Part shown: piece by piece, positions 14,797-39,029 of the stretch
How the letters are laid out: every line of letters begins with the position of its first letter
Position numbering within the stretch: position 1 is the stretch's first letter
Assembly (NCBI GenBank): GCA_030647005.1
Contig: JAUSKG010000034.1
Span: 4,050 to 68,049 of the forward strand
Length of the DNA stretch: 64,000 bases
Origin: a bacterium
Lineage (GTDB): Bacteria > Patescibacteriota > Patescibacteriia > JACPHY01
Direction: 5' to 3'
Notes under the pieces: model-generated
What the model was told of the DNA's origin: nothing
What the model saw: the letters and a program-made list of their open reading frames with translations, nothing else
Database searches by the model: none
Program-made: the position numbers and the translations under genes

Positions 14797-14800
14797 GCCA

Positions 14801-15078: not shown

Positions 15079-15100
15079 TAGGTGACAAGAAACACCGTAC

Positions 15101-17036: not shown

Positions 17037-17131
17037 GGCACACTCCTCCTCTGGAGGGACAATCGAAGGAACCATGAACAACGCGGCACCGAGGCCGCTC
17101 GTTCCGATGCTCGCACGGATGTGCGACGCGG

Positions 17132-17776: not shown

Positions 17777-17832
17777 AGGCCCTCAGTATACCACCTCGAC
17801 ATGGAGCATGGGGTGGCCTATACTGGAGAAAG

Positions 17833-19443: not shown

Positions 19444-19457
19444 TCACGCACGCTCGG

Positions 19458-20312
19458 ATGCTCACCGTTATCCTCCCAGTACGGAACGAGGAGCCCATCA
19501 TCGCGGCAACCATCGAGCGACTCCTCACGTTCCTCCACGCGACGCTCCACGAGCCGTGGCGCGTTATCGTTGCTGACAATGCCTCGACGGACCGCACGCG
19601 CGATGTCGTGCGGGATGCGATAGTACACGATGGCACGCACCTCGCACTCCTCGAGCTCGATCGCCCGGGCAAGGGCCACGCGGTAATGAGCGCGTGGCGA
19701 AAAGCTGCAAGCGAAACAACAACGGCATGTCATTGCGAGCCGAATCCGAGAGGCGTGGCAATCCCGGTCATATCGGTACAAGGTGAAAGCCGGGTGCACT
19801 GCATGGCCGGGATTGCCACGTCGCGGACTCCTCGCAATGACAAACAAGGGAGTTTTGCAGAGGTCCCTCAAAATATCTTCCTCTTCCTCGATGCCGATCT
19901 CGCCACTGATCTTCGACACATCCCGGAGCTCATCGCCGCGGTGCGCAGTGGCGCGGACATCGCGGCGGCGTCGCGGTACCTCCCGGGATCGCAGACGCAC
20001 CGGAGCACCTTCCGCCACATCATCTCGCGTGCGAACGCGCTCCTCCTCCGGCTCCGGTTTGGACTCCGCATGACCGATGCGCCGTGCGGCGCGAAAGCGG
20101 TGAACGCTCGGGTGGTGCGCGACATCGTCCCGCTCATCCGGGACGACCAGTGGTTCTTTGATACGGAGCTCTGCATCCGTGCGCAGCGCGCCGGTTTCCG
20201 CATCGTTGAGATTCCGATCGCATGGCATGAACCGCGCGAGGGTGTTGCCATCGCGAAAGTCCTCAGGATCATTGTGCGCAACTGCCGGACGATCCTCCGC
20301 TCACCGCTATGA
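19458..20312 (+). CDS. GT2-family glycosyltransferase (polyprenyl-phosphate sugar synthase-like) carrying an in-frame palindromic-element insertion
   Basis: ILPVRNEEPIIAATIERL...IVADNASTDRT...GKGHA...FLFLDADL (DxD motif) is present. About 38 extra residues (TTACHCEPNPRGVAIPVISVQGESRVHCMAGIATSRTPRNDKQ) lie between the GKG and DAD motifs and are encoded by repeat copy 19729..19841. Confidence 0.8.
   Translation: MLTVILPVRNEEPIIAATIERLLTFLHATLHEPWRVIVADNASTDRTRDVVRDAIVHDGTHLALLELDRPGKGHAVMSAWRKAASETTTACHCEPNPRGVAIPVISVQGESRVHCMAGIATSRTPRNDKQGSFAEVPQNIFLFLDADLATDLRHIPELIAAVRSGADIAAASRYLPGSQTHRSTFRHIISRANALLLRLRFGLRMTDAPCGAKAVNARVVRDIVPLIRDDQWFFDTELCIRAQRAGFRIVEIPIAWHEPREGVAIAKVLRIIVRNCRTILRSPL
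19729..19841. repeat. MITE-like palindromic element copy A (GTCATTGCGAG...CTCGCAATGAC), inserted in frame in the GT2 gene
   Basis: Left arm GTCATTGCGAGCCGAATCCGAGAGGCGTGGCAATCCCGGTCAT; core ACAAGGTGAAAGCCGGGTGCACTGC; right arm ATGGCCGGGATTGCCACGTCGCGGACTCCTCGCAATGAC. The host ORF remains open across it. Confidence 0.85.
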
Positions 20313-22039: not shown

Positions 22040-23335
22040 ATGCGCTTCCCATCTCCCATAAGAACAATAACCATCATCGTCCCGAGCTTCAATGAGATAC
22101 GCACCATCGCACGCATCTACGATGCGCTCGTACGCTTGCGCCTCGCGGTGGATAACAACGAGATTGAAAAAAGTATCCTTTTTGTTGACGATGGATCAAC
22201 TGACGGAACACGAGAGTGGATCACGCACACGCTTGCGGATGCCCGTTGTGACGGTTCGATTCGCCTCCTCACGCATCCGACAAACCGCGGCAAGGGTGCC
22301 GCCATCCGCACTGCGCTGGAACATGCACATGGGGACTACATCATCATCCAGGATGCCGATCTCGAATATGATCCGCAGGACATCCAGACACTCGTCACTG
22401 CAGCGCATCTGACTCATGCCCCCGCCATCTACGGGTCTCGCGACAAGGACATCGTGAATGCGTGCTCCAGTAAGACGTTCCTCTGGGGCAATCGCATACT
22501 CACCCTTCTGACAAACCTCCTGTTTCGACAACGTCTCACCGATGTTGAAACGTGCTATAAGCTCATCAATACGCAGCTCTATACATTCCTAGATCTCCGA
22601 GAGCACGGTTTTGGCACCGAAATCGAGGTGACGGCAAAAATCGCGACGCTCGGCATCACCATCCCGGAGGTTTCCATCACCTACACGCCGCGCTCGTACC
22701 ATGAGGGAAAAAAGATTCGTGTGCGGGATGGCGTTCGAGCAGTGCTATTACTCGTGAAGTACAGAGTGTCCGATCTCCATTACGGTCCTTTAGATCTCTG
22801 CATCCGCGCATGGCGGGAACGAGCGCTCTGGCGCGTCTTCGCGCCGCACGCATCCGCAACCGTACTCGATGTCGGTTGCGGACGACAAGCATCGCTCGCA
22901 TGGAAGTTGCGCACACGGGTTTCCACGTACACAGGCGTTGATCCTGATGTCCGTCCTGCACAGTACCGGAATGTCCGCATCCTCCGCACTCCAGCCGAGC
23001 AAATGGTGGCGCAATTGGACGGCGAGACATTTGACACCATCATTGCGCTTGCTGTCCTTGAGCATCTCGATGACCCGGATCATTTCCTACACGAATGCCG
23101 AACACTCCTCAAGAACAACGGATGCCTCATCCTCACCACTCCAACACCGCGAGCGCAACCCATACTCCACCTCCTTGCGTTCCTTCGCCTCATTGATGCC
23201 CATGAGATTGAGGAACATAAAACACTCTTCCATCCCCGCGAGCTCCACGAGATGCTCCGGCGAGCGGGATATTCCTCCGTCCGAGTACGGCCGTTCCTCT
23301 TTGGATACAACTGCTGCTATGTTGCAACGCGCTAA
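22040..23335 (+). CDS. bifunctional GT2 glycosyltransferase / class I SAM-dependent methyltransferase fusion
   Basis: N-terminus IIVPSFNEIRTI...FVDDGSTDGT...IIQDADLEYDP (GT2). C-terminus VLDVGCGRQ...LKNNGCLILTTP (methyltransferase motifs I and post-I). Confidence 0.7.
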   Translation: MRFPSPIRTITIIVPSFNEIRTIARIYDALVRLRLAVDNNEIEKSILFVDDGSTDGTREWITHTLADARCDGSIRLLTHPTNRGKGAAIRTALEHAHGDYIIIQDADLEYDPQDIQTLVTAAHLTHAPAIYGSRDKDIVNACSSKTFLWGNRILTLLTNLLFRQRLTDVETCYKLINTQLYTFLDLREHGFGTEIEVTAKIATLGITIPEVSITYTPRSYHEGKKIRVRDGVRAVLLLVKYRVSDLHYGPLDLCIRAWRERALWRVFAPHASATVLDVGCGRQASLAWKLRTRVSTYTGVDPDVRPAQYRNVRILRTPAEQMVAQLDGETFDTIIALAVLEHLDDPDHFLHECRTLLKNNGCLILTTPTPRAQPILHLLAFLRLIDAHEIEEHKTLFHPRELHEMLRRAGYSSVRVRPFLFGYNCCYVATR

Positions 23336-24653
23336 AGGATTCTTCGCACATCTCTCAACTCGCGCCGACCGGTACCTCCCCGGACTCTTCCGCAGGGGGA
23401 CACCTCCACGCATGTTCGTCGAGATCATCGTGCTCGCGGTCAGCATCCTGTCACTCTTCTTTGTGACGCTCCATACAAACTTCTCCATCACTTCACAACA
23501 ACAGTTCGCGCACCTCGCACAGTCGTTCCTCCAGGGTGTCGCCTATTTTCTCAATCCATTCTTTGACGCACCCGGAGAAACCCTCATTGATACGGTCTTC
23601 ATCCACGGACGGTACTACTGGCCACTGAGCCCACTTCCAGCGATCCTGCTCATGCCGTTTGTCCACGTTGCGAGTGTGTTCCATGGATTCTTCCTCCAGG
23701 GATATCTCCAATTCTTCCTCACACTGGGGATTTTCATGCTCTGCGTTTCCATCGCACGGCACTGGTCATACTCGCATCGAGATGCGCTGTGGCTCGCATT
23801 CGCATTTGTCTTTGCCTCAACGTACCACCTCGTTGCGTTCGTATCACACAGCTGGTACTTCGTTCAGGCCATCGCGGTGTTCTTTACACTCTTCGCAATC
23901 CAGGAATGGCTTGGCAGGAGACGGTGGTGGATGATTGGCATCGCGTGCGCACTCGTTTTTGCAAGTAGAGTGACTGCGGGTGTGGGCGTGCTCTTCTTCG
24001 TGGGCGATATCCTGTTCCAAAGCAGTCGTCTCCCATCCCGAAAACAGTACGTCTCCCTCGCACAGCTTCTCGTACCCATCTTCCTCGCGGGCGTGCTGCT
24101 CCTCGGATACAATGCTGTCCGCTTTGGGACGATATTCGAAAACGGCTACCGCTTAGCCAATGCGAGCACCGCAACCGCCGAGGACCGCTACGAGTTGCTG
24201 CACTACGGCCTCTTCCGTATCGAGAATATTCCGACGAATCTCTACTACTACTTCGTCAGGTCATTGGATCCTGTCACGCTTCCCATTGCAACGAGCTCCA
24301 GAAGAACGTACCACCTCACCGCACCGTACGTCACCGTCGGAGACCCGGGCGTGAGCTTCTTTGTGACGGCACCCATCTTCCTCTACCTGTTCTCAAGGAA
24401 AACGAGACAATCACTTCGCGAGGAGCGCTCGGTGCGCCTGGCGGCGATGACCGTTGTTCCCATCCTCCTGTTACTCCTCCTGTACTACTGGCCGGGATGG
24501 ACGCAGGTCGGACCGCGCTATATGCTTGACCTCCTTCCGTATCTCTTTCTCGTACTCCTTGCATCGTTCCACAACTACCGCCTCCCTGCTTTCGCAAGGA
24601 TCCTCATCATCTGCAGTGCTGCGCTCAACCTCTTTCTCACGATACATTTCTGA
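23319..24653 (+). CDS. polytopic membrane protein, hypothetical
   Basis: Start MLQRAKGFF overlaps the stop of the preceding gene. ~444 aa with many TM helices. The track ORF start at 22869 is an upstream extension inside the previous gene. Confidence 0.45.
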   Translation: MLQRAKGFFAHLSTRADRYLPGLFRRGTPPRMFVEIIVLAVSILSLFFVTLHTNFSITSQQQFAHLAQSFLQGVAYFLNPFFDAPGETLIDTVFIHGRYYWPLSPLPAILLMPFVHVASVFHGFFLQGYLQFFLTLGIFMLCVSIARHWSYSHRDALWLAFAFVFASTYHLVAFVSHSWYFVQAIAVFFTLFAIQEWLGRRRWWMIGIACALVFASRVTAGVGVLFFVGDILFQSSRLPSRKQYVSLAQLLVPIFLAGVLLLGYNAVRFGTIFENGYRLANASTATAEDRYELLHYGLFRIENIPTNLYYYFVRSLDPVTLPIATSSRRTYHLTAPYVTVGDPGVSFFVTAPIFLYLFSRKTRQSLREERSVRLAAMTVVPILLLLLLYYWPGWTQVGPRYMLDLLPYLFLVLLASFHNYRLPAFARILIICSAALNLFLTIHF

Positions 24654-24675: not shown

Positions 24676-26457
24676 CTAAGGTGCCGCCTCTACCTCGCGC
24701 AGCGGCCCGATGATGCGGTGCGTGATGCGCTCTGCGGGCGTGAAGAGTTCGAGCGGGGGTGCGGGGCCGTCCGCGCCGCGCGCGAGGAGGAACACGCCAT
24801 CGCGCTCCGCAGCAACGCGGAACCCGCCATCCTCGAGAAGACGCGCCAACCGTGCTGGCGCGTCCGCGGCGTAGGGCTTGGTCCAGGAAACGTGGAGGAG
24901 CGCGGTGTACTCCTCCGCCATGTCCGCAATGACTGCGAGGACGTGCGTCGTTTGGGACGGAAGCACATACGGCGCGAACGCGTACTGCTGCTGGCCGAGT
25001 GCAGCGTTCGGGAGGTACGTCGTGCCGCGACGCGCGGCGACGCGCGTGATGACGGACGCGCTCGCGGAGATGACCGCGTTGTCGGGTACTGCGGCGAGGA
25101 GCACATCCGTGGCCTGCGCCTGCACGCGCTGCGTATCCGTTGCACCGAAGACCGCGGCGCGTGCGATGCCTGGGAATGGGCCGAGAAGAAACGCGACGGC
25201 GATATATGCGCTCACGCCAAGCATCATCGCAGCGCGGTGTGGGAGCGGGAACCAGTGTCCGAAGAATGTAGCGACGCGGCCTCCATACCACCCCCCTGTA
25301 TCCCCCCTCTGGAAGAGGGGGGAGCGGAGTGTGGCGAGCACGAGCGCGGGGACAAAGAGGAGCCCGTAGTGCATCTGCACCATGAGGTTGGAGCCGCCGC
25401 TCGCCGTGAGGAGCACCTGGGCCGCCGGCGGCAACGCGAGGAGAAACCACGCGGGCGCGAGGAACGGAAGGAACAAAAACGGAAGAAGAAGCCCGAGTAC
25501 GAAATCGAGATTCGAGAGACGCAGGAGGTGCTGCGCAACGAGCACGGGATGTCCAATGGTGTTCACGATCACCTCACCGAACGACTCGCCGAGCCATCCG
25601 TAGTACACGAGGAACGGGTACGCGCCCGCCGGACTATGTACTGCCGCGATGCGCGTTGCGATGGAGAACCACGCGATGCCCAGGAGGAGAGGTAAGAGCA
25701 TCCAGTACCACTTCTTGCTGTCATTGCGAGGAGTCCGCGACGCGGCAATCCCGGTCATAGGGGTTACGCAACGGTCACGCGCATTGGCCGAGATTGCCAC
25801 GCCTCGCGGACTTGGCTCGCAATGACAGAGGCGTGAGGAGAAGGAGGAAAATCGTAAAACAATCGCCACCACCCCAAACATCATCGCGATGAGCGCGATG
25901 TCCTCCCGTACGAACAGCGCGAGTATGAGAAACAGGATGAACGGCAAGAAGCGACGTTGCAGGAAAAAGTACCCCGCACTCAAAAGGAGAACGGGCGCGA
26001 ACGCGAGCGCGTGGAACTCGAAGAGTGCGGCGTTCCAAAACAGCGGATTCCCGAGCCAGAGCGCGGTGAGGAGCAGTGACCATCGTGACCGACGGAGCAA
26101 CGCGTACACTGGCACCGCAGTGAGTCCGAGCACGAGTGCCTGCACGATGACGAGGAGCCGCGCATCCGACCACACCCGGAAGATCGGTATGAGCAAGAGT
26201 AGCACGGGCTCCACGTGATCACCGAGGTAGCTGTGCTGCTGGATGTCCGACCACCACCCATTGCCGGCCGCGAGGTTCGCGAGCACGTTCGTGTAGATCG
26301 CGAGGTCGAGCCCGTTGTAGAGCAGGTACCGATACTTGAAGAAACCCACCGCGCTCACCGCGAGCGTGAAGAGCGCGATCATGCCCGCGAGCGCGAGGCG
26401 GCGCAACGTGATGGTCATCCATGGAGCATCTGCATCATGTTGATGAGGTTGTGTCAT
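24676..26457 (-). CDS. DUF2079-like polytopic membrane protein with in-frame palindromic-element insertion
   Basis: 593 aa, N-terminal half multi-TM. The internal segment CHCEPSPRGVAISANARDRCVTPMTGIAASRTPRNDSKK is encoded by repeat copy 25720..25826. Confidence 0.5.
   Translation of the reverse strand: MTQPHQHDADAPWMTITLRRLALAGMIALFTLAVSAVGFFKYRYLLYNGLDLAIYTNVLANLAAGNGWWSDIQQHSYLGDHVEPVLLLLIPIFRVWSDARLLVIVQALVLGLTAVPVYALLRRSRWSLLLTALWLGNPLFWNAALFEFHALAFAPVLLLSAGYFFLQRRFLPFILFLILALFVREDIALIAMMFGVVAIVLRFSSFSSRLCHCEPSPRGVAISANARDRCVTPMTGIAASRTPRNDSKKWYWMLLPLLLGIAWFSIATRIAAVHSPAGAYPFLVYYGWLGESFGEVIVNTIGHPVLVAQHLLRLSNLDFVLGLLLPFLFLPFLAPAWFLLALPPAAQVLLTASGGSNLMVQMHYGLLFVPALVLATLRSPLFQRGDTGGWYGGRVATFFGHWFPLPHRAAMMLGVSAYIAVAFLLGPFPGIARAAVFGATDTQRVQAQATDVLLAAVPDNAVISASASVITRVAARRGTTYLPNAALGQQQYAFAPYVLPSQTTHVLAVIADMAEEYTALLHVSWTKPYAADAPARLARLLEDGGFRVAAERDGVFLLARGADGPAPPLELFTPAERITHRIIGPLREVEAAP
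25720..25826. repeat. MITE-like palindromic element copy B, inserted in frame in the DUF2079-like gene
   Basis: GTCATTGCGAGGAGTCCGCGACGCGGCAATCCCGGTCAT ... ATTGGCCGAGATTGCCACGCCTCGCGGACTTGGCTCGCAATGAC. Confidence 0.85.
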
Positions 26458-26738: not shown

Positions 26739-26865
26739 AGACATCCTGATGCGTCAGAATGGAGCATTGGGAATGGCACCTTTCCAAGTACCAACACCCA
26801 TATTGTAGCGCGTGAGATACCTCGTCACGTCATCCCTCGGGATAACGGAGAAAGGAGCAACGGAG

Positions 26866-27336
26866 ATGTTCACGATTCAACCACACACCATCGTGGTGAC
26901 TTGCATCGCAGTGCTCATTGGGAGTGCGTGTGGCACCACGCGGATCGTCTCGCCGCAAGCGGCGAACGGGTACGCGGAGTTCCATTCGGACTCCGGGTAC
27001 TTCCCCTCAACCGAAAACCCGGGTGCGCAATGGAAGCTGCTCGCGGCCGGTATCCGCGACATCGAGTGGGCGCGCGCGGATGCCGCATACGTGCAGTCCC
27101 TGCGACTCGTCGGCGCGGAGATGGCATCCAGCCAGCACCAATTCGCGGATGTCTACGCGTCCATCGGCATCCTCGCCGACCACATCCGTGGACTCCAGGC
27201 GAACGGACAGGCGATGGGCCTCCCCACGCAGGACGCGCAGCTCGTCCAAACGCTCACGGAGTGCGCGACGGGAACATGGTCTGACGTCTGCGCGCAACTC
27301 GCGCAGGAGTTCGAGCGAAGCGAGGCGGCGCGATGA
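26866..27336 (+). CDS. putative lipoprotein, hypothetical
   Basis: Start MFTIQPHTIVVTCIAVLIGSACGT (lipobox-like LIGSAC) with an AAGGAG SD. The track ORF starts 18 codons upstream. Confidence 0.5.
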   Translation: MFTIQPHTIVVTCIAVLIGSACGTTRIVSPQAANGYAEFHSDSGYFPSTENPGAQWKLLAAGIRDIEWARADAAYVQSLRLVGAEMASSQHQFADVYASIGILADHIRGLQANGQAMGLPTQDAQLVQTLTECATGTWSDVCAQLAQEFERSEAAR

Positions 27337-27881
27337 TGCGATTCATGGTCATTGTCGTCTTCCTCCTCACGGCGTGCGGGACCGCAAACCAGCAGGAACT
27401 CACGAAGCTCCGCCTGCAGCTCGCTGGCATCCAAGCCCGGAACGCCACGCTCACGGCGCAGCTCGCACAGCGGCCGGCTCCTGCGCAGACCGCGACCGAG
27501 CTCCACACACGTCCGCCGCTCCGCGGGGACATTGACTCGCGCGAGGAGTTTTGTACGGGGGCGATGTGCCTGGAGGTGTGGAACGGCTCAACGTTCCCCA
27601 TCACCGAGCTGTTCGTGGACAATCGGCCGGTCGAGCTCCACTCACACCGCGGACCCATCCTCTGGCCCAAGAGCAGAGTATACATCTTGCTCCACCGCCC
27701 GGGGTTGCACACCATCCAGGCAACACTCACGAACGCCGTGCACGTTCCGGGCGGTGCAATTCCAACCGGCGTGAAGGTTGGCGAGTGCCACGGACGTCGC
27801 CAGGTTCCGCTCACCATGGATGAAAATCTTGGCGTTGCGCGTGTACGACTTGGCCAAGGCACCTGCAATTTCGTCCAGTAA
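27333..27881 (+). CDS. putative lipoprotein, hypothetical
   Basis: MMRFMVIVVFLLTACGT (lipobox LLTAC). Its start overlaps the upstream stop (ATGA). Confidence 0.5.
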   Translation: MMRFMVIVVFLLTACGTANQQELTKLRLQLAGIQARNATLTAQLAQRPAPAQTATELHTRPPLRGDIDSREEFCTGAMCLEVWNGSTFPITELFVDNRPVELHSHRGPILWPKSRVYILLHRPGLHTIQATLTNAVHVPGGAIPTGVKVGECHGRRQVPLTMDENLGVARVRLGQGTCNFVQ

Positions 27882-27945
27882 ATTATACCGTAGGATAGAA
27901 GACACCCCCCAATCTCGGGGGGTGTCTCTTCATGCATAACCGTAG

Positions 27946-28338
27946 CTATCCACTCGTTGCTGTTCTCACGCGACTCAAAACGAACGCTGAGATTGCAAAA
28001 GCGGCGAGCGTGACTACCAACCCAATGAGTGCGCGACTGAAGGTCTCCTTCGCCTTGGTCACTTTGGTCTCTTCGCTCCCTGCGGTCATCCAGAGGAATC
28101 CGCCATACACCACGAGTCCAAAGAAGATAATACTAACGAGCTGGAGCAACCCGTTGACGATCCGTGTGACAAGGATGATAGGCGAGGAGGGATCGGTAAT
28201 GTATCCGGCACCAAGACCGATCTGCTGACGCTGTTCCTTGATATCGTCTTTAAGGGATGCCACCGCGATAGAGGGAAGAACCGCAAACACCGCGCACCAC
28301 ACGAAGATGTTCGCGCAGACCGTCCGTATCATCCGCAT
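27946..28338 (-). CDS. TrbC/VirB2-like (T4SS-type) pilin-family small membrane protein, paralog 1 of 7
   Basis: Signal peptide, then a TM helix with the conserved motif VVYGGFLWMTAGSEETKVTKAKE, then a second TM helix. Confidence 0.65.
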   Translation of the reverse strand: MRMIRTVCANIFVWCAVFAVLPSIAVASLKDDIKEQRQQIGLGAGYITDPSSPIILVTRIVNGLLQLVSIIFFGLVVYGGFLWMTAGSEETKVTKAKETFSRALIGLVVTLAAFAISAFVLSRVRTATSG

Positions 28339-28390
28339 TCCCAGATGTGTGTGCTGTGGTGCGTGCATACGTCAGGAGGTTGCTGCAGCA

Positions 28391-28777
28391 CTACACCACG
28401 CCAGACGCAGCGACAAGACGGTCAATGATGAAGAAGGAGAGCGACCATGCGGCGAGTACGATTGCCAAACCAATAATGGAGCGGCGAATCGTCTCCTTTG
28501 CCTTCTCAACCTGCGGTGCCTCTCCGCGCGCGGTCATCCAGAGGAAACCCGCGTAGACCATTTGCACGAAAAAAATGACACCAAGCAATGAGATGGCGGC
28601 CATGACGATCTGGCCAATGAATACCGCCAGGGAAAACTTGTCCGTGATCACGCCTCCCCACCCAGCTTCCGCTCCTACGTCTTGCAGGCGTTCCAGTATC
28701 GAACCAGCATACACACGCACGGGCACCATACCGAACATCACCAGTGCAAGCAGAAAGTGCCGTAGGTGTTTCCGCAT
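28391..28777 (-). CDS. TrbC/VirB2-like pilin-family small membrane protein, paralog 2
   Basis: Motif MVYAGFLWMTARGEAPQVEKAKE. Start at the internal MRKHLRHF. Confidence 0.65.
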   Translation of the reverse strand: MRKHLRHFLLALVMFGMVPVRVYAGSILERLQDVGAEAGWGGVITDKFSLAVFIGQIVMAAISLLGVIFFVQMVYAGFLWMTARGEAPQVEKAKETIRRSIIGLAIVLAAWSLSFFIIDRLVAASGVV

Positions 28778-28778
28778 A

Positions 28779-29165
28779 CTACGAGATCCCCGAAGCGGCC
28801 TCAATGGCCTGCACGACAAAGTACGCAATCGCATACGCGCCGAGTGTGATTGCAAGTCCGATAATGGCGCTGGTGATGGTCTGCTTCGCCTTCTCGATCT
28901 GCGGGGAATCCCCGCGTGCGGTCATCCAGAGAAATCCGCCGTAGATCATGAGCACAAAGAATATCACGCCTACGAGCGAAAGGCCGGTGAGGATGATATC
29001 CGCGATAACAAAATCAATGTCTGTCTGAGCTCTCCGTGTAACATCGAGTTCTAAAAACTTCTTGAGTGCCTCATCAAACACACCCGCCGCTCGCGCGACG
29101 ACTGGCTGCACGATGAGTACCGCCCCCGTGACGATCCCGATGCCGTAGCGCGTTATGGTGCGCAT
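28779..29165 (-). CDS. TrbC/VirB2-like pilin-family small membrane protein, paralog 3
   Basis: Motif MIYGGFLWMTARGDSPQIEKAKQ. Confidence 0.65.
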   Translation of the reverse strand: MRTITRYGIGIVTGAVLIVQPVVARAAGVFDEALKKFLELDVTRRAQTDIDFVIADIILTGLSLVGVIFFVLMIYGGFLWMTARGDSPQIEKAKQTITSAIIGLAITLGAYAIAYFVVQAIEAASGIS

Positions 29166-29169
29166 ACGC

Positions 29170-29625
29170 TCACGCAAAAATGCTCAGTACGAACGCCGTT
29201 GCGGCGAAGGCGAGGCCGATGATGATGATGCCGATGATGGCGGCCTTAATGATGTCCTGGGCCTTCTTCACCTGGTCGGGCGCGCCCTGGGCGGTCATCC
29301 AGCGGATACCGGCGTAGATCATGAGGATGAGGAACGCGACGCCGACGAGCGAGAGTACGTTGTAGATGACAGCACCAACGATGACCTCGAGCGGACGCGC
29401 TTCACCGAGCACCGCCTTTGCTGCGCTATCCTTAAGCCCACACTCCGCGAGACAACGCGCGGAAAGCGTTGCGCGAGCTGCTTCTCCCGCTGCGCCTAGC
29501 TCCGGACAGGTGCACGGTGCTACAGATACAGAAGCTTGAGCGGAGACAGCAGGCGGCAAGAACACCGTCGCGCCAAGCGTGGCGAGGAGTACTGCGGTGG
29601 CGATGGCGGTTGCGCGAACACGCAT
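29170..29625 (-). CDS. TrbC/VirB2-like pilin-family small membrane protein, paralog 4 (Cys-containing N-region)
   Basis: Motif MIYAGIRWMTAQGAPDQVKKAQD. Cys-containing segment CTCPELG...CLAECG. Confidence 0.6.
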   Translation of the reverse strand: MRVRATAIATAVLLATLGATVFLPPAVSAQASVSVAPCTCPELGAAGEAARATLSARCLAECGLKDSAAKAVLGEARPLEVIVGAVIYNVLSLVGVAFLILMIYAGIRWMTAQGAPDQVKKAQDIIKAAIIGIIIIGLAFAATAFVLSIFA

Positions 29626-29650
29626 AGCGGGAACGTTTTTGGAGAGCGAG

Positions 29651-29682
29651 GAACGCGCCCCGATCTTGATCGGGGCGCGTTC
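29651..29682. terminator. perfect palindromic hairpin between pilin paralogs 4 and 5
   Basis: GAACGCGCCCCGATC / GATCGGGGCGCGTTC. There is no clear T-run, so it may be a terminator or a processing site. Confidence 0.3.
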
Positions 29683-29708
29683 CGATCGCGCGATACGAAA
29701 CGGTGATC

Positions 29709-30131
29709 TTAGGTCGTCGCAGTGACGAGGGAGTTGATGACGAACTTGGCGATGGCGAATGCGGAGAGGATGATCGCAAGGCCGATGATGCCGGAGAAGA
29801 TGAGCTGCTTCGCCTTGGTCACCTTGGTCTCTTCACCGCCTGCGGTCATCCAGAGGAATCCGCCCGCGAGGATGATGACAACTGCAACGATGCCCAGGAG
29901 TCCCATGGCGACGTTGATGATCGAGGCAACCGTCGAACGGACATCGCGCGTGCCGAGCTGGATCGTGTTCCCGACCTCATTGATGCCAATGTCAAGTGTG
30001 CCGACGGCACCGACTGCATGCGGCAACATGAGTGCCGTTGCAGCTCCGGCGGCGACCGCAGTGGCGGCAACCTTCCGGAGAGTACTCCGATTGCGCAGTG
30101 ATGCGATGTGCATAGAAGCGATACGTGGCAC
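29709..30131 (-). CDS. TrbC/VirB2-like pilin-family small membrane protein, paralog 5
   Basis: Motif IILAGGFLWMTAGGEETKVTKAKQ. Confidence 0.65.
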   Translation of the reverse strand: MPRIASMHIASLRNRSTLRKVAATAVAAGAATALMLPHAVGAVGTLDIGINEVGNTIQLGTRDVRSTVASIINVAMGLLGIVAVVIILAGGFLWMTAGGEETKVTKAKQLIFSGIIGLAIILSAFAIAKFVINSLVTATT

Positions 30132-30215
30132 TGAGCCGATTCGGGCGAGCTCCTGGAGATCGCGGGACGACGACGCGTGCCTGTTAACAATGCGTGGTTA
30201 TGATGGAACCAATAC

Positions 30216-30584
30216 TCACGAAGCAGACCCCAGTCGCGAGATGATGAAGGTGGTGACGGCGTATGCGGTGAACATGACCGCAATCCCGAGCACCGCCCAC
30301 ACCATGACATCCCTCCCTTTCTTCACTCTTTCAGGACTCCCGGCAGAGGTCAACCACAGGAACCCGCCGTAGATGAACATGAGGAGCGCGATGGAGCCCA
30401 CGAGCCCAAATCCCGCACGAATGACGTTCCCGATGAGCACCGCGATGGACGACGTACCGATCGGGTTCTCGAGGGACGTTGTACTCGCGGTTGTGCCCGC
30501 TGCATGAGCCGCAACAGGAACGAGTGCCGCCACCGCCATCATCCACAGCACTTTCGCACGCATCCACAGAATCATATGCAGCAC
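30216..30584 (-). CDS. TrbC/VirB2-like pilin-family small membrane protein, paralog 6
   Basis: Motif FIYGGFLWLTSAGSPERVKKGRD. Confidence 0.65.
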   Translation of the reverse strand: MLHMILWMRAKVLWMMAVAALVPVAAHAAGTTASTTSLENPIGTSSIAVLIGNVIRAGFGLVGSIALLMFIYGGFLWLTSAGSPERVKKGRDVMVWAVLGIAVMFTAYAVTTFIISRLGSAS

Positions 30585-30639
30585 ATTCTTAGTATACCAT
30601 GAACTCTACGTGGCTGTGTACAAGTGTCACAATGGGGGC

Positions 30640-30734
30640 GTAGCGGAAACCTTTAGGTTTCCATCCGCCTACCCGCGACCAATCCGCCTACAACGAACGG
30701 CCGGATGGAGGCCTGAAGGCCTCCGCTACACCAT
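30640..30734. repeat. structured ~95-nt repeat, copy 1 (two internal hairpins closed by an outer GTAGCGG/CCGCTAC stem); second copy at 55689..55764
   Basis: GTAGCGGAAACC-TTTA-GGTTTCC ... GGAGGCC-TGAA-GGCCTCC-GCTACACCA. The second copy carries the compensatory change GGAGGTC/GACCTCC. Confidence 0.5.
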
Positions 30735-30757
30735 ACAGCTCGCACCTGGTATCGGTA

Positions 30758-30804
30758 TGACCGGGATTGCCGCGTCGCTCGCGGACTCGCTCCTCGCAAT
30801 GACA
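30758..30804. repeat. solo right arm of the MITE-like element (copy D)
   Basis: ATGACCGGGATTGCCGCGTCGCTCGCGGACTCGCTCCTCGCAATGAC. Confidence 0.7.
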
Positions 30805-30821
30805 GGGGGGGGGTGATCAAC

Positions 30822-31391
30822 TCACTCCGTCTTTGGCAGCGTGGACCACTCTACTGCCCAGTCACCAGTGAAGAGCTTCGCGGGCGTGGTTGCTCCAAGC
30901 TGGCCGGTGAGCGCGCCGAGGATGGTGTTCACGAGGAGCCACGCGCCAAAGATGATGACGATGCCGATCGTCGCGTGGACGAGCGTCTCGCGCCCCTTCT
31001 TTACCTGCTCCGCGCTGCCGGCTGAGGTCACCCAGAGAAACCCGCCGATCGTGAACATGAGGAGCGCGAGCGATCCGGAGATGCCGAAGATAAACTTGGA
31101 AACCTGCACGACGATGACCACGAAGTCCGCGAGCACGCAGTTCCCGTAGCAGAAGCAGTTCGCGCTCGTGAAGAGTATCGGTCGCGGATTCTCCTCGGTG
31201 GGCGCATCGAACCGCGCGCGGCACTGCCCCGTCGGCTCGCTCGCGTTCACCCACTCGCCCTCCGTATTCTGCACCGCGACGGTCGCGCGCTTCCGATCCG
31301 TATCCACGCCCTGCGCCCACACCGCGAGCGGCGCGACGACGAGCGTCGCGAGCGAAGCAATCACCGCAAGCGTCAGCAGGCGTCGCAGCAT
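30822..31391 (-). CDS. TrbC/VirB2-like pilin-family membrane protein, paralog 7 (extended Cys-rich N-region)
   Basis: Motif MFTIGGFLWVTSAGSAEQVKKGRE, preceded by an ~80-aa region with CRARFDAPTEENPRPILFTSANCFCYGNC. Start MLRRLLTLAV. Confidence 0.6.
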   Translation of the reverse strand: MLRRLLTLAVIASLATLVVAPLAVWAQGVDTDRKRATVAVQNTEGEWVNASEPTGQCRARFDAPTEENPRPILFTSANCFCYGNCVLADFVVIVVQVSKFIFGISGSLALLMFTIGGFLWVTSAGSAEQVKKGRETLVHATIGIVIIFGAWLLVNTILGALTGQLGATTPAKLFTGDWAVEWSTLPKTE

Positions 31392-31405
31392 ATGAGATTT
31401 CTCCA

Positions 31406-31428
31406 CTCGCGGACTCGGTCGAAATGAC
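31406..31428. repeat. solo terminus of the TCATTTCGAG-subfamily palindromic element
   Basis: CTCGCGGACTCGGTCGAAATGAC. Confidence 0.45.
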
Positions 31429-31441
31429 GTTCTAGGCATCA

Positions 31442-32911
31442 TCACAGCGTCTGCTGAATCTTCTGCGCGGCGAGCTGGAGCGCGCGGTTGATTTCAATGG
31501 TATCCGAATACGCATCGCGGACGAGCTGCACGAACGCCTGCTCCGCACCCTCCGCGTTCTTTCCATGGTACCACGTCCGCGCGGTGAGGAGCTGGTTTGC
31601 GAACACCTTGAGGTCAACGTCCTGCTGCTGCTCGCCCACGAGCGATCGCAGTGCGGTGGGACGCTTGGCCTGCTCGAGGAACCGACGCGTCACCTGCGGC
31701 TGCGTCGTGATGTAGGTGAGGAAGTCCCACGTCTCGTTCGGGGCACTCGTGCGCTCGGAGACCGCCTGGAGCCAGAAATCCGCGTAGGTAATTGCCGCAC
31801 CCTGTCCACCCGGCACGACATCACTCCCGATAACGCTCCCGGTCTGCGGGTCTACGGCGGCGGCAATGTGTGGCACCGCACTCACCGAGAGATTCAACTG
31901 CGGTGCGCGGCTGCGGATGATCGGACGGTGGTAGCTGTAGCCAAAGAAGTACGCCACCTTCCCCTGGAGGAACGCCTCAAGCGCGTCGGGCTGGTCATCG
32001 TTCCACGAGTAGACGAGCTTGTTCGGGTTGGCGAAATCCGCGTAGTACGCGAGCGCGTCTGCCGCCGGCAGCGACGTGCGTCCCGTGATGCCCGCCGGTA
32101 GGAGGTGGAACGACGGCACGCCGCGCGCGATCATCTGCGTCCCGTTCTGCATCATGAGGAGCGAGAGGATATCGAACGACCGCGGGACGTTCCCCATCGT
32201 CCCGAGCGCGACGCCGGACTGGAGGATCGCGCCATCCGCAGCGACGCGCGTGAGACGCGGCACCTGCTGCTGGAGTTCTGCCCAGGTCTTTGCAGGCACC
32301 GGAATACCCCCCGCGTTCAAGAGGTCACGGTTCGCGTAGAGCACGAGCGTATCCACGTAGAGTGGCAGACCGTAGACGGCATCTCCCCCCTCGCGCGGGA
32401 GCACGACATCCGACACGACGACGTCCAGGAAGAGGTCGCGGAGCGTCTGCGGGTTGGGCGTGGTTGTCGCGCGGAGCTCGCCCACCTGCTCCTTGCGCAC
32501 TGTACCCGTGAGCGTGACAAACGGCATGGTGACGACGGACGGCGCGGGGAGGAGCTTCGACTGGTACCGCCGCGTCCACGTCGCGGGAATCGAGATGATG
32601 TCCGGTCCGGCGAAGTCGCCCTCGGAAAGCGCGTCGAGGAGTGCGGTCTCATACTCATCGAGCCGGAGCTTCCGGTAGGTGATCTGCACATGCGGGTGAA
32701 TCTGCCGGTACGCGTCAATGAGCGGGCGCACGTCATCGCTCGTCTCATTGACCCCCCACCAGACAAGATTGACCGGCCGAAGCCGCGCTGCGACCTCCTG
32801 CGGAATCGCGTCCCGCACGCACCCGGCGCCAAGGAACACTACGGACACGGCGATGAGCGCAATCGCACGGAGCCGTGACCAGCTGCCTCTTTGTTCTTGT
32901 CTGTGTTGCAT
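31442..32911 (-). CDS. extracellular solute-binding protein (ABC-transporter SBP family-1-like), probable lipoprotein
   Basis: Start MQHRQEQRGSWSRLRAIALIAVSVVFLGAGC (lipobox). ~490 aa with periplasmic-binding-protein-like composition. The track ORF extends 16 codons into the upstream repeat. Confidence 0.55.
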   Translation of the reverse strand: MQHRQEQRGSWSRLRAIALIAVSVVFLGAGCVRDAIPQEVAARLRPVNLVWWGVNETSDDVRPLIDAYRQIHPHVQITYRKLRLDEYETALLDALSEGDFAGPDIISIPATWTRRYQSKLLPAPSVVTMPFVTLTGTVRKEQVGELRATTTPNPQTLRDLFLDVVVSDVVLPREGGDAVYGLPLYVDTLVLYANRDLLNAGGIPVPAKTWAELQQQVPRLTRVAADGAILQSGVALGTMGNVPRSFDILSLLMMQNGTQMIARGVPSFHLLPAGITGRTSLPAADALAYYADFANPNKLVYSWNDDQPDALEAFLQGKVAYFFGYSYHRPIIRSRAPQLNLSVSAVPHIAAAVDPQTGSVIGSDVVPGGQGAAITYADFWLQAVSERTSAPNETWDFLTYITTQPQVTRRFLEQAKRPTALRSLVGEQQQDVDLKVFANQLLTARTWYHGKNAEGAEQAFVQLVRDAYSDTIEINRALQLAAQKIQQTL

Positions 32912-33062: not shown

Positions 33063-33932
33063 CTACGCTAATGTCTTCTTCAGGAATCGTCGAAAATCCT
33101 TCTTGAGCTCCGGGTGCTTGAGCGCGAGTGCGACGTTCGCCGAGAGGAACCCGAGCGGGTTGCCGCAGTCGTACCGATCGCCGTCAATCTCACGCGCGAA
33201 AATTGGGATGCTGCGGTCGAGTGCGGTGATGAACGCATCTGCGAGTCGGATCTCACCGCCCTTCCCCGCGCGCTGGCGCGTGAGGATCCGGAGGACGTCC
33301 GGCGTGACGACATACCGTCCAATAACCGCCAAGCGCGACGGCGCGTCCGCGGGGTGGGGCTTCTCGACGAACGTTTCAACAGCATGGACGCGATCGCCCG
33401 CGGGCGTTCCCGCGATGACACCATACTGGTGTGTCTCGCGCCGCGGAACCTGCGTCACAGCGATGACCGATCCACCGTACGCGTCGTGGGTATCTATGAG
33501 CTGCGCGATCCCCGGGCGTTCCGCGACGATCATGTCGTCGCCAAAGAGCACCGCGACCGGCTCGTCCGCGTCCACGAACGGGAGCGCGGAGAGGATGGCG
33601 TGACCGTCGCCGAGCGGCTTGGACTGGCGGACGAACGCGAACGAGGCGAGCTGACCGATCCGCGCGACTTCCTTGAGGAGTGCGCGCTTGCCCTGCTGCT
33701 CCAGGCGGTACTCGAGCTCGAAGTTGCGGTCGAAATGGTCCTCGATGGCGCGTTTGCCGATGGCGGTGACAAAAATAATCTCGCGGATGCCCGCCGCCAC
33801 CGCCTCCTCCACGATGTGCTGAATAATCGGACGATCAACGACGGGCAGCATCTCCTTCGGCTGCGCTTTCGTCGCGGGCAGGAATCGCGTGCCGAGTCCG
33901 GCGACAGGAATGATGGCCTTGCGGATGGACAT
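33063..33932 (-). CDS. galU: UTP--glucose-1-phosphate uridylyltransferase
   Basis: MSIRKAIIPVAGLGTRFLPATKAQPKEMLPVVDRPIIQHIVEEA is canonical GalU. ~289 aa. Confidence 0.9.
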   Translation of the reverse strand: MSIRKAIIPVAGLGTRFLPATKAQPKEMLPVVDRPIIQHIVEEAVAAGIREIIFVTAIGKRAIEDHFDRNFELEYRLEQQGKRALLKEVARIGQLASFAFVRQSKPLGDGHAILSALPFVDADEPVAVLFGDDMIVAERPGIAQLIDTHDAYGGSVIAVTQVPRRETHQYGVIAGTPAGDRVHAVETFVEKPHPADAPSRLAVIGRYVVTPDVLRILTRQRAGKGGEIRLADAFITALDRSIPIFAREIDGDRYDCGNPLGFLSANVALALKHPELKKDFRRFLKKTLA

Positions 33933-34026
33933 GGAGCGTATGTGACGAAATGCGGGGAGCTCGTGTGTCCCCATCCTCTATGGTATAGTATAGCGCAAAG
34001 GAGACCCCGCGCACGAGTCGCTCATC

Positions 34027-36223: not shown

Positions 36224-38893
36224 CTACGGCACGAGCGCGGCAATAACTTTGAGGGGTGCGAGGATGCCGAGCGGTGATGCGGGTGCGTGCTGCTCGCCAG
36301 CGTTTGGTCCTGGACCGGGACCGCCAGCCGGGCCGCGTGCATCCGGTGCATCGAATGAACGCGGGGGCTCGGGGCGACTTCCGTCCCCGCGGCCCTCGAT
36401 GAACCGCTCGAACGGAACCTCGCGGCGCATCTCGACGGGCTGCTGCGGTTCCGATGGACGGAATCCCCGGAGGTCGTCCTTTCGCATACGCGGTTCCGGC
36501 GGGGCGACGAACGAATCAAACTTTTGCGGCTCATCGCCGACGGGTCTCGCCGGAACGGCTGTCTCCACGTCGTGACGCGGTTCCGGTGGGGGGCTCGCGT
36601 CGCCCTCACCCTGTGGTCGGAAGAGCATCGGCTTCCCGTTCGGTCCCATGAGCGGTTGTCCATCAGACCCAACCCCATTGGGACGGAAATCGTTGCCGAA
36701 ACTCGGCCGCCCATCGGGCGTGAACGGCAGGTACGGACGCGACGGATCGTGCGGCTGCTCGCCGGAGAGCTCCTCACGCTTCTCCTCGATGAGCGCGCGG
36801 AATCGCTCCGATGCACCTGGCGACGGCGGGGAAGTGGGGTCCGTACCAAACTGCTCGGGCATGCGCCCCTCGCGGCGAAACTCGGCTTCGAGAGCGCCAT
36901 CGCGCTCCCGGAACTCGAATGGCGGTGCACCGTCGAGCGGCTTTGGTGCGCGATCAAACCCTGGCGTACCAAACGAACCCGGTGCAAACTCCGGCGGCAC
37001 GCCCTCGCCCTCAATCGCGCGGTGGAAATCCTCCCGACGGCGCTTGAACTCCTCCATGGCCTCGGGCGGGAGTCCCATGTCTTCCGGAATATCCCCCTCC
37101 GTACCCTCGAACGCCTCTCGCATCTTCACTTCGAGTTCCATCCGTCGCTCCGCACCCTTCCGCATGAGCTCCTCGCGCTGCTCGCCGATCCTCATGAAGA
37201 ACGATGGATCGCCTGCCTCGAACTGCTGTTTGAGATTCGGGTCAAGCTCAATGGCCTCCTTGATGTGCCCGAGGATCTCGGGATTCTCGAGGTCGTTGAG
37301 GTGCTCCTGGAATCGCTGACGCTGCACCGCGATGGCGCGGTCAATGCCGAGTCCGGGAACGCCGCGCGCACGCAACCCCTCCAGTACTTCGAGCGACTGC
37401 GGGGCGCTCGTGTCCACGAACCGATCGAGGAACTGCTCACCGCCCTCGCGGAACTGACGCTCAAACTGCGCCGTGCCCTCGCGCTCCAATCCCTGGACGA
37501 ACGCGCGCTGCTCCGGCGTGAGTTTCTCCTCCAGTTTCTGCAGCAGGATGAAATCCGTGGGCTCCGGATTCTCGCGGAGCTTCCGCATGAGCTGCTGCGC
37601 TTCACCGGCGACCGCCTCTGCCGCTTCACCCGTTGCGGTCGTCGTACCGGCGAATTGCGCTTTGAACTTTTCGATGGATGTATCTTCACGCCGCTCGATC
37701 TCCGCGCGCACCTCCGGCGGCACGAAATGCTTGAACTGCTCAGCGACACGCACGGCTGTCGTGTCACCCTCCTCGAACCTGCGGAGGAGGTGCTCGCGCG
37801 CACCCTCGCTCGCTCCGGAGAACTCCGTGTTGAACTTCTCCACGGCCTTCGCCTTCATCGCGTCAATCTGTTTGAGGAATGCCGGCGGGAGGTCTCGCGT
37901 CGTGCGCACGTCGTCGAGAATCTCGAAGTGCCGCACCGCATCGCCGGACAAATGTTCAACGTAGTTGCCGAAGCGTTCAGGATCCTCCTCGATCTGCTCA
38001 GCCATGCGGGACACCGCGTGCTCCTGCGCCGCGCGGATGGCCTCGCGGGCCTGCTCCGGCACCTGCTGCTCGAGTTGCTTGAGGACCTCGACGCTCTTGA
38101 AGTTCCTGAACTCGCCACCACGCTGGTTCTCGAGCGCGCGCTCGAATCGCCCGCGGAGGAGCGAGGGATCATCAACGCCGCCCATGACACCTCCCACGTG
38201 CTCGAGGATACCATCGCGACGCTCGGCGATCTGCGCACGGAACTCCTCCGGCGCGTACTCGGCAATGCGCTCCATCGCCTTCTGCTGCGTGAACGAGGTA
38301 TTCGCGACGCGATCGAGGAACCGCTCCACCGCTTCCGGATCGCGATCCTTCCGCTCGCGGAGCTGCTGTGCATCTGCCGCGATCTCCCGCATCCCATCCT
38401 GCGCCTGACGCATGGCACGCTCCACGTCAGCGAACGCACCTGCGTCGCCGCCGCGATCTTCCGCGAGCTTCTGCGCGTCCGCGAGCTCCTGGTTGGCGTA
38501 CTGAAACTTGCGCTCGGCCTTCTTGACCGGATTGAACGTCATCGCGGTCCGAAACCCGCGCCAGAGCCGCTTTGATGCATAGAGCGGGCTGTCCTGGAGC
38601 ACGCGCGCATCCGTAGCACCGAGGTCTGCCGCGCTGACCTCGGCATCGCTCGTCACCGCTTCGGGAATGTCCGCAGTCGCCGCCTCCTCGAGTGCGGCAT
38701 CAACGGCGGCCTCGACCGCTGCGCTCTCATCCGCCGTCTCCGCCGCCGGAGCATCCGGCTCCTGTGCGTGCGCAGGCGGAGCAACCACCGTCAGGCCAAT
38801 AAAAAACGCTACGGCGAGCGTCGTAGCGAAAACGAGGAGCGCGCCCGAACTCGTGTGGAGGCCGCCTGCGTATACGTCGCGAGTTCCCTGCAT
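36224..38893 (-). CDS. DUF5667-like secreted / membrane-anchored helical protein with Pro/Glu-rich C-terminal half
   Basis: N-terminal TM or signal segment, then DSPLYASKRLWRGFRTAMTFNPVKKAERKFQYANQELADAQKL, the DUF5667 signature common in CPR genomes. 889 aa, highly charged, with a Pro-rich tail. Confidence 0.6.
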   Translation of the reverse strand: MQGTRDVYAGGLHTSSGALLVFATTLAVAFFIGLTVVAPPAHAQEPDAPAAETADESAAVEAAVDAALEEAATADIPEAVTSDAEVSAADLGATDARVLQDSPLYASKRLWRGFRTAMTFNPVKKAERKFQYANQELADAQKLAEDRGGDAGAFADVERAMRQAQDGMREIAADAQQLRERKDRDPEAVERFLDRVANTSFTQQKAMERIAEYAPEEFRAQIAERRDGILEHVGGVMGGVDDPSLLRGRFERALENQRGGEFRNFKSVEVLKQLEQQVPEQAREAIRAAQEHAVSRMAEQIEEDPERFGNYVEHLSGDAVRHFEILDDVRTTRDLPPAFLKQIDAMKAKAVEKFNTEFSGASEGAREHLLRRFEEGDTTAVRVAEQFKHFVPPEVRAEIERREDTSIEKFKAQFAGTTTATGEAAEAVAGEAQQLMRKLRENPEPTDFILLQKLEEKLTPEQRAFVQGLEREGTAQFERQFREGGEQFLDRFVDTSAPQSLEVLEGLRARGVPGLGIDRAIAVQRQRFQEHLNDLENPEILGHIKEAIELDPNLKQQFEAGDPSFFMRIGEQREELMRKGAERRMELEVKMREAFEGTEGDIPEDMGLPPEAMEEFKRRREDFHRAIEGEGVPPEFAPGSFGTPGFDRAPKPLDGAPPFEFRERDGALEAEFRREGRMPEQFGTDPTSPPSPGASERFRALIEEKREELSGEQPHDPSRPYLPFTPDGRPSFGNDFRPNGVGSDGQPLMGPNGKPMLFRPQGEGDASPPPEPRHDVETAVPARPVGDEPQKFDSFVAPPEPRMRKDDLRGFRPSEPQQPVEMRREVPFERFIEGRGDGSRPEPPRSFDAPDARGPAGGPGPGPNAGEQHAPASPLGILAPLKVIAALVP

Positions 38894-39029
38894 AGATGTG
38901 GTCGCCGGGACGATCGCGCGGTGCGCTATCCCCAGGCAGTGATGTTTGTCTTTCCTCTAGTATACCACACTTTCCCCGTCAAGACGAAGAACATGAAGAG
39001 CGGACTCCGTGAGGAGTCCGCTCGAATCG

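Follow-up and report, generated by a model that had tools for sequence, protein, structure and literature searches.

Patescibacteria depend on host cells, and we know of no account of how they take material from them. A tandem run of seven divergent genes for small membrane proteins in the chromosome of one such ultra-small, Uhrbacteria-like bacterium raises the question of what the set encodes: interchangeable surface variants, or the distinct parts of one structure. The run lies on the minus strand at 27946–31445 of a 64,000-nt stretch of a patescibacterial contig (JAUSKG010000034.1 of assembly GCA_030647005.1; hereafter the window), and an earlier note, made from the sequence alone, had taken it for a diversifying set of TrbC/VirB2-type, pilin-like surface subunits. 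We number the genes in transcription order, such that P7 is gene 1 and P1 is gene 7. The analysis presented here supports the pilin-like identity of all seven consecutive genes and indicates that the set is old and of fixed order. On balance we think it likely, though only modestly so, that the products are the building blocks of a heteromeric, VirB2-like filament on the cell surface, assembled by a type IV secretion system (T4SS) that is encoded elsewhere, with P5 as the major subunit and the array co-organized with galU and an orphan sugar-binding lipoprotein.

Searches with Pfam profiles placed each of the seven open reading frames (ORFs) in the T4SS_pilin family (PF18895), with scores of 27.5–39.6 bits (E = 5.5e-10 to 3.2e-6) against a gathering score of 26.6 bits, and the closest homologs of the array proteins all carry the same domain. 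Moreover, a profile built from the seven paralogs recovers exactly seven matches across the window, which excludes a chance origin of the array. The NCBIfam model of the pilin-like proteins of Mollicutes integrative and conjugative elements (ICEs; NF045849) also matches all seven, at 18.5–32.1 bits and thus under its curated cutoff of 40 bits; each of the seven alignments covers the two-helix core of the 80-residue model (E = 7e-8 to 1e-3). Precomputed hits to the TrbC/VirB2 family (PF04956) are present on many homologs; in the array itself this model matches only below threshold. The family assignment of the earlier note is supported. Weak sub-threshold Pfam matches to DctQ and NMN_transporter are also found among the array proteins. 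In the Pfam and NCBIfam scans of the paralogs there was no significant match to holins, immunity proteins or other unrelated small-membrane-protein families, nor did the Pfam N_methyl/pilin model match any of the seven. The paralogs likewise lack the marks of PilA-like type IV pilins, namely a class III signal (G/(F,M)TLxE) and a single N-terminal helix, and have AxA-type Sec signals and two transmembrane (TM) helices instead. The predicted membership of all seven proteins in the T4SS_pilin family can thus be regarded as solid.

The proteins share a common layout. By hydropathy, a Sec-type signal, basic at first and then hydrophobic, leads through an AxA-like site to a variable ectodomain of ~17–60 residues. 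This is followed by a long hydrophobic helix closing in G-G-F-L-W-x-T, a short loop with conserved lysine (K-K/A-K), the second of the hydrophobic helices and a short tail. AlphaFold models derived from homolog alignments are confident helical hairpins: in P5 the helices span residues 58–90 and 95–133 with a pLDDT (the per-residue confidence of the model) of mostly 80–92, and in the AlphaFold2 model of P7 they span residues 87–121 and 127–162 with a mean pLDDT of 74. Hydropathy and models thus bear out the combination of signal segment, core and second TM helix that had been proposed for each gene. The core itself is less uniform than claimed, being exactly GGFLWMT in P1, P3 and P5 but AGFLWMT in P2, AGIRWMT in P4, GGFLWLT in P6 and GGFLWVT in P7. 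It occurs in the window only within the seven ORFs, which settles the concern that it might be a repeat-derived motif with non-coding copies. Across the core and the second helix, an alignment of the seven has invariant columns of G, W, T, K, G and A, and pairwise local identity between paralogs, which covers the conserved part only, is 29–57%. The extra cysteine-containing segments reported for paralogs 4 and 7 are indeed present, with four cysteines each (C38, C40, C58 and C62 in P4; C57, C79, C81 and C85 in P7).

Taken at their longest, the ORFs of P2, P3 and P7 run into the gene upstream; alternative starts were inspected and these three were corrected. P7 (30822–31391, minus strand as throughout the array; 189 aa; 39.6 bits to PF18895) combines a signal peptide, an ectodomain of ~60 aa with four cysteines (C..C.C.GNC), the two TM helices and a C-terminal tail GDWAVEWST. 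An NCBI protein of 189 aa on an 82-kb contig (MDO8463580.1, 'MAG: pilin [bacterium]', where MAG denotes a metagenome-assembled genome) is identical to it and so confirms its start. P6 (30216–30584, or to 30563) starts at either GTG 30584 or ATG 30563, giving 115–122 aa with 36.0 bits, and has a short Ser/Thr-rich ectodomain. P5 (29709–30131, or to 30113; 134–140 aa; 32.8 bits) has a leader of ~36 aa. P4 (29170–29625; 151 aa; 29.4 bits) has the second four-cysteine ectodomain and the motif AGIRWMTAQG. The last four genes are tightly packed, with P4, P3 and P2 separated by gaps of 1–4 nt: the ATG of P3 (28779–29165; 128 aa; 27.5 bits) lies 4 nt past the P4 stop, and that of P2 (28391–28777; 128 aa; 32.8 bits) 1 nt past the P3 stop. 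P1 (27946–28368, or to 28338; 130–140 aa; 32.3 bits) starts at ATG 28368 or 28338.

To place the array among its relatives, we scanned one genome per GTDB species with an alignment of the core of four paralogs, which returned 306 relatives, and examined the best 80 loci (L001–L080). These belong to Uhrbacteria, Magasanikbacteria, Falkowbacteria and other Patescibacteria MAGs, in line with the character of the Candidate Phyla Radiation (CPR) that the earlier note had recognized and that is also seen in the CPR-typical DUF5667 proteins near the array. Many of the related MAGs are publicly titled 'uncultured Gammaproteobacteria bacterium', although they clearly have the gene content of Patescibacteria. 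Tandem arrays of 3–12 pilin ORFs are found in 56 related species-level genomes.

We then compared the window paralogs by position with 47 arrays, many of which are cut by contig ends. The best match of P7 is gene 1 in 27 of the 47, and that of P6 is gene 2 in 18; the best matches of P6 are the second genes of other arrays. P5 finds its best matches among genes 1–4, and window genes 4–7 match late positions, such that position correlates with position overall (Spearman correlation 0.64, p = 1.6e-39). P5 is 80% identical to gene 3 of the array in GCA_030646955.1 (L081) and 59–71% identical to its counterparts in distant genomes, with reciprocal orthologs in 48 arrays, but it is only 29–47% identical to its own array neighbors. 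For the same genome pairs as those P5 comparisons (59–80%), PNPase is 54–56% and GalU 47–50% identical. Orthologs also keep paralog-specific traits: the C..C.C.GNC motif and aromatic C-terminal tail of P7 recur in at least 10 homologs as well as in the L081 ortholog, and the GIRWMTAQG motif of P4 is kept in its L081 ortholog. At the 30–80% amino-acid identity seen among paralogs and against the L081 orthologs, synonymous sites are saturated. The retention of order and of paralog traits across genera indicates that the divergence of the paralogs predates the split of the genera and has been maintained rather than being ongoing. Judged by these comparisons, the array is an old gene set of fixed order and not a fast-diversifying one. 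The description of the array as a diversifying set therefore does not stand, in the light of its positional orthologs, their kept traits and a P5 as conserved as PNPase or GalU.

The fixed order is accompanied by a conserved RNA structure. The spacer between P5 and P4 contains a perfect stem-loop (minus strand; arms 29650–29665 and 29668–29683, 16 nt each and 100% complementary), which lies 26 nt past the P5 stop, is unique in the window and folds as RNA at -39.2 kcal/mol (z = -5.0). For each internal pilin gene of the related arrays, we folded the 90 nt past the stop and set the result against shuffles. Folds with z < -3 lie downstream of 31 of 48 reciprocal-best P5 orthologs (65%; median z = -4.5), against 21 of 276 other junctions (8%; median z = -0.09; Fisher p = 1.3e-17), and in the same survey the orthologs of the other six paralogs have no enrichment of stem-loops downstream. 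The stems past the P5 orthologs vary in sequence across a G+C range of 0.19 to 0.68, which means that the structure is conserved and not the sequence. The palindrome between paralogs 4 and 5 had been recorded before as a hairpin; it is present, and this record understated a conserved feature of such arrays. Placed past the P5 gene, the stem-loop probably attenuates transcription or serves as a 3' stabilizer of the mRNA.

A further regularity concerns the genes upstream of the array. P7 is preceded on the same strand by a gene for a sugar-type solute-binding protein (SBP) of the Pfam SBP_bac_1/8 type, a lipoprotein (31442–32911) that ends 50 nt upstream of P7 and whose nearest solved relatives are oligosaccharide- and maltose-binding proteins. 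Upstream of it in turn lies a gene for a GalU-like nucleotidyltransferase (33063–33974, minus strand; Pfam NTP_transferase), the first gene of what can be called the galU-SBP-pilin module. Among the 56 related arrays, 33 have a same-strand SBP homolog (31–76% identity) directly upstream of the first pilin gene. Since 15 of the other 23 end less than 400 nt upstream and are uninformative, this amounts to 33 of 41 informative arrays; the remaining 8, with more than 3.5 kb upstream yet no SBP, constitute a second array type with PGI, oxidoreductase, RNase J, PBP and ~545-aa ORFs as neighbors. In 25 loci a GalU homolog ends at most 182 nt upstream of the SBP gene. Of the two closest informative genomes, L081 has DUF5667, NTP_transferase, SBP and four pilin genes in the same order as the window, and in Uhrbacteria RIFCSPHIGHO2_02_FULL_57_19 (L010) GalU is 67% identical to the window GalU. 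The pilin array thus belongs, with galU and the gene for a sugar-type SBP lipoprotein, to a conserved module that runs on one strand, away from virB4. The SBP lipoprotein had been listed earlier as one of three lipoprotein neighbors; it is there, but as a conserved upstream partner it deserves more weight than that.

As to how such a set might work, we infer pilus assembly, dependence on a T4SS, major and minor subunit roles and a function in host contact. The seven products would be Sec-exported, signal-peptidase-processed, two-helix proteins of a VirB2/TrbC-like pilin family typical of Patescibacteria, first inserted into the cytoplasmic membrane. A Patescibacteria-type T4SS (VirB4, TrsD, VirB3/PrgI and VirB6), encoded elsewhere, would then extract them and build a heteromeric surface filament or conduit where the cell meets its host. 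In this structure the seven paralogs would have distinct roles instead of being interchangeable variants. In pap/fim-type operons a stem-loop past the gene for the major subunit sets the stoichiometry. By analogy with such fimbrial operons, the stem-loop past P5 would raise the level of the P5 transcript relative to the downstream genes and makes P5 the probable major subunit; P5, with its long leader, is also the most conserved and most widespread of the paralogs. P7, with its cysteine-rich ectodomain and aromatic C-terminal tail, and P6 would represent conserved 'head' types, likely minor or specialized subunits, and P4 to P1 would form a 'tail' group that differs in copy number from genome to genome.

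Several results weigh against this proposal. The gathering score of the TrbC/VirB2 family PF04956 (27.9 bits) is not reached by any paralog, P6 (13.4 bits) and P7 (14.6 bits) being the only matches. Sequence searches of the PDB with profiles of 7 and of 33 sequences returned only noise and no solved relative. A fold search gave ATP synthase subunit c as its top match (E = 0.55) and otherwise generic helical hairpins, with VirB2 and TraA missing from the first 50 matches; a helical hairpin discriminates too little for the structure to serve as confirmation. The P5–P4 stem-loop is not followed by a U-tract, which makes a terminator role uncertain. As the earlier note had stated, the machinery is not encoded nearby: the window has no ORF of at least 450 aa with a Walker A motif, and none of its 40 larger ORFs has a Pfam match to VirB4, VirD4, VirB11, VirB6 or PilB/PilT, with the proviso that divergent VirB3 or VirB6 proteins could escape Pfam. 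Hence, no virB4 with TrsD, VirB3/PrgI or VirB6 lies within ~20 coding sequences of the pilin genes in the window, and around the related arrays no T4SS gene is found among Walker A ORFs of at least 450 aa within ~10 kb. The link to a T4SS consequently rests on the family name and on the situation in Saccharibacteria. Finally, a pilus made from these pilin proteins has not been observed in any Patescibacterium, and a 2025 review calls it an 'intriguing possibility' (PMC12857230).

The wider record of such genes comes from two studies. Quinonero-Coronel et al. (2025; PMC12102498) screened 3,035 genomes of Patescibacteria with the PF18895 and PF04956 models and found virB4 in 2,417 of them (80%). 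VirB2-like pilins were present in 1,948 virB4-positive assemblies, lying near virB4 in 1,135 and distant from it in ~40%, and 441 arrays of 2–11 divergent VirB2-like genes were reported from 383 assemblies (mean identity 25%, maximum 54%), for which the authors speculated about versatility in host range. By their definition of an array (at least two divergent pilin genes in tandem or one gene apart) the present locus, with seven adjacent genes at 29–57% local identity, qualifies as an array, and it resembles the published ones in PF18895 membership, in being composed of tandem divergent paralogs, and in lying on the chromosome without a relaxase in the vicinity. Wang et al. (2023; PMC10633639; see also the review PMC12857230) found a predicted pilin series to be essential in Southlakia epibionticum ML1; in this, the one genetically tractable species, the T4SS is essential as well. 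That series lies inside a T4SS cluster, whereas here and in the ABY1-type relatives examined the pilin genes are unlinked from virB4 and belong to the galU-SBP-pilin module. The array is thus an ordinary further example of the pilin arrays published in 2023–2025 and adds no new kind of system; however, paralog order, the stem-loop past P5 and the SBP linkage are not mentioned in the published accounts (PMC12102498, PMC10633639).

Comparison with better-known pili sharpens the picture. The array proteins resemble the VirB2/TrbC/TraA pilins of diderms (PF04956) in being small pro-pilins with a long leader (~36 aa in P5), two helices, a short basic loop and termini predicted to lie outside. They differ in scoring at 13–15 bits against the 27.9 needed, in their longer mature proteins (94–163 aa), in coming from a monoderm and in having no adjacent virB genes. 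The multi-copy virB2 genes of Bartonella and Anaplasma are likewise tandem, divergent VirB2 paralogs in host-dependent bacteria. Those copies are thought to serve antigenic or host-range variation. The present paralogs, by contrast, can be followed from genus to genus as orthologous lineages in conserved order, and this points to roles that are fixed and distinct. With the chaperone-usher pap/fim operons and the major/minor pilin operons of type IV pili the likeness, as we see it, would lie in an abundant conserved subunit whose gene is followed by a stem-loop setting stoichiometry and in specialized paralogs in fixed order; homology is lacking, as are a class III (prepilin peptidase) signal and, in the window, an usher, a chaperone and PilB/PilT. 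The Mbov_0395 family of pilin-like conjugal transfer proteins of Mollicutes (NF045849) is single-copy and ICE-borne, unlike the seven paralogs here with their scores below its cutoff.

The strongest competitor of a T4SS-built filament is an envelope complex independent of any T4SS, in which the pilins and the SBP lipoprotein, taken to be co-transcribed, perhaps with GalU-dependent glycans and the flanking GT-C-like membrane proteins, would form a surface or uptake structure or an anchoring scaffold without VirB4. It draws on the position of the SBP gene directly upstream on the same strand in those 33 of 41 informative arrays with GalU just upstream of it, on the lack of an ATP-binding cassette (ABC) permease or ATPase beside the SBP gene in the window, on the lack of T4SS genes within ~10 kb of the arrays and on the generic helical-hairpin fold. 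DUF2079 or related polytopic proteins lie directly downstream in several loci. Moreover, pilin modules double as N-terminal anchors of giant adhesin-like proteins: in ~20 related loci a pair of giant ORFs (~600–900 aa and 2,000–3,460 aa) replaces the tandem array, each with an N-terminal T4SS_pilin module followed by Ig-like/Big_5, TIG, Big_7 and Laminin_G_3 (lectin) domains. These proteins look like adhesins anchored by the pilin module, and the placement of the module N-terminal to such domains implies that its C-terminus faces outward, a point that also counts in favor of the filament. One example is the pair of L032 (7667–9766, 700 aa; 9770–20152, 3,461 aa), and further pairs are found in L006, L007, L019, L030, L035, L036, L043, L045, L046, L057, L061, L062, L071, L074–L076 and L080. 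However, a homologous pilin series in Saccharibacteria lies inside a T4SS cluster and is co-essential with it (PMC10633639), and pilin genes are near virB4 in 1,135 of 1,948 assemblies (PMC12102498). Furthermore, neighborhood alone is no proof of a physical complex, and galU is a housekeeping gene whose linkage may be only historical. We consider this explanation unlikely, if worth keeping in view.

A variation cassette, in which the genes would encode alternative surface subunits, differentially expressed or exchanged to match host strains or evade recognition, is in our estimate quite unlikely. The ectodomains are highly divergent between paralogs, the copy number of the tail group varies in arrays of 3–12 genes, and an internal promoter-like site together with the hairpin could permit differential expression. 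The same has been proposed for the Patescibacteria arrays, with Bartonella and Anaplasma as parallels (PMC12102498). Yet order and paralog identity are kept across genera, and the evolutionary rate of P5-, P6- and P7-type genes does not exceed that of housekeeping genes. At the DNA level, identity among the copies is 63–79% over 61–125 nt, too low to provide a substrate for frequent gene conversion, and a recombination cassette was rejected on these repeats. No invertible element or silent-cassette structure was seen, and the sole recombinase found, a XerC/D-like protein, is 15 kb distant.

We also considered a reading for ABY1-type Patescibacteria in which an organelle module, self-contained and shared across genera, would comprise galU, the orphan sugar-binding lipoprotein and the pilin array and would encode a heteropolymeric VirB2-like filament for capture or import of host carbohydrate. 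P5-type proteins would then be the major subunit and the cysteine-rich P7-type and the P6-type proteins specialized ones, with the giant pilin-anchored adhesins as alternative tips. If true, this would amount to a T4SS-derived pilus that cooperates with a substrate-binding protein in a monoderm and may do so without canonical neighboring T4SS genes; as it stands we hold it to be decidedly improbable. That the genes belong to an unrelated family misnamed as pilins (holins, bacteriocin-immunity proteins or transporter fragments) is barely credible: the generic hairpins of the fold search and the sub-threshold DctQ and NMN_transporter matches would fit it, but the Pfam and NCBIfam scans assign no holin or immunity family, the TrbC/VirB2 model (weakly, for P6 and P7) and the Mollicutes ICE model (for all seven, below cutoff) agree on pilins, the window offers no phage context, and structure-based annotation in S. 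epibionticum identifies pilin subunits within a T4SS cluster (PMC10633639).

For the filament that we favor, the fixed paralog order, the probable major subunit marked by a stem-loop and the partnership with the SBP and galU together give these arrays a testable structure. These three regularities can guide the choice of subunits for tagging, imaging and depletion in cultivable relatives.

The rest of the window (~63% G+C) is chromosomal, with genes for PNPase, S15, a NYN protein, LspA, BacA and GalU, three tRNAs and the XerC/D-like recombinase; an origin of the array in a mobile element was rejected in view of the PNPase, S15, tRNA, LspA, BacA and GalU genes. Downstream of the array and convergent with it are two small lipobox ORFs on the plus strand (26812–27336 and 27333–27881), the two lipoproteins that the earlier note had listed along with the SBP. 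A GC-rich stem-loop with a T-rich tail lies directly past the P1 stop (27899–27928, minus strand; terminator scan; -25.3 kcal/mol, z = -4.3). It is a terminator-like end of the array, placed to serve both strands, as it sits between the array and the convergent lipoprotein gene. Just ahead of P6 is a sigma-70-like promoter match (30591–30620, minus strand; TACACA, 18-nt spacer, TATACT, with an upstream TG as in an extended -10), which is a consensus match only. The 237-nt spacer between P7 and P6 also has a composite hairpin (30640–30735, minus strand) of nested GGAGGCC-UUCA-GGCCUCC and GGAAACC-UAAA-GGUUUCC stems within a closing stem GUAGCG...CGCUAC. It has no Rfam match, and the spacer as a whole is not significant against shuffles (z = -1.7).

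The same spacer contains one arm (30757–30801, minus strand) of a dispersed palindromic repeat of ~110–130 nt (arm ...CATTGCGAGGAGCGAGTCCGCGAGCGACGCGGCAATCCCGGTCAT), which is found at at least 8 sites of the window (19754/19803, 25741, 26538/26587, 30757, 32942/33004, 39840/39890, 39981/40031 and 63412/63474), with 14 arm matches against 0.2 expected. It yields spurious peptide motifs, e.g., MTGIA.SRTPRND, at the 5' ends of longest ORFs, and two copies lie within long ORFs, one in the DUF2079 gene (25741) and one in a family 2 glycosyltransferase (GT2) gene (19754).

In the 33 related loci with an SBP gene, this gene and the first pilin gene often overlap or adjoin. Directly upstream of SBP-less arrays, and divergent from them, is an ORF of ~545 aa with no Pfam match (L015, 5720–7366; L059, 7177–8820; L068, 6104–7732; L067, 1632–3284; minus strand in locus coordinates). 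Candidates for VirB4 near related arrays were rejected, as they proved to be FtsK, FtsH, PilB-like T2SSE, SMC, UvrA and ABC-F proteins. A PilB-like T2SSE gene lies ~5 kb downstream of the array in L009, after ftsH (10021–11769; confirmed by Pfam), and another is suggested by size and position in L065 (9251–11044); these are probably a coincidental neighborhood with type IV pilus genes.

Beyond the lipoprotein ORFs the array is flanked by genes for polytopic membrane proteins (17779–19443, 20231–22036, 22869–24653 and 24676–26457), of which one is a DUF2079 protein and three are without a Pfam match, with the GT2 gene (19284–20312) among them. Homologs of several of these membrane proteins are encoded directly downstream of pilin arrays in other genomes, and together with the GT2 they could point to glycosylation of the envelope or of the pilins. 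An NCBIfam scan of neighbors without annotation yielded no useful assignment. On the minus strand are two genes for DUF5667-headed proteins, neither with a pilin module: one of 910 aa (36224–38956), and one of 2,703 aa with CARDB and PKD repeats (40597–48708), which is probably a giant surface protein typical of the CPR.

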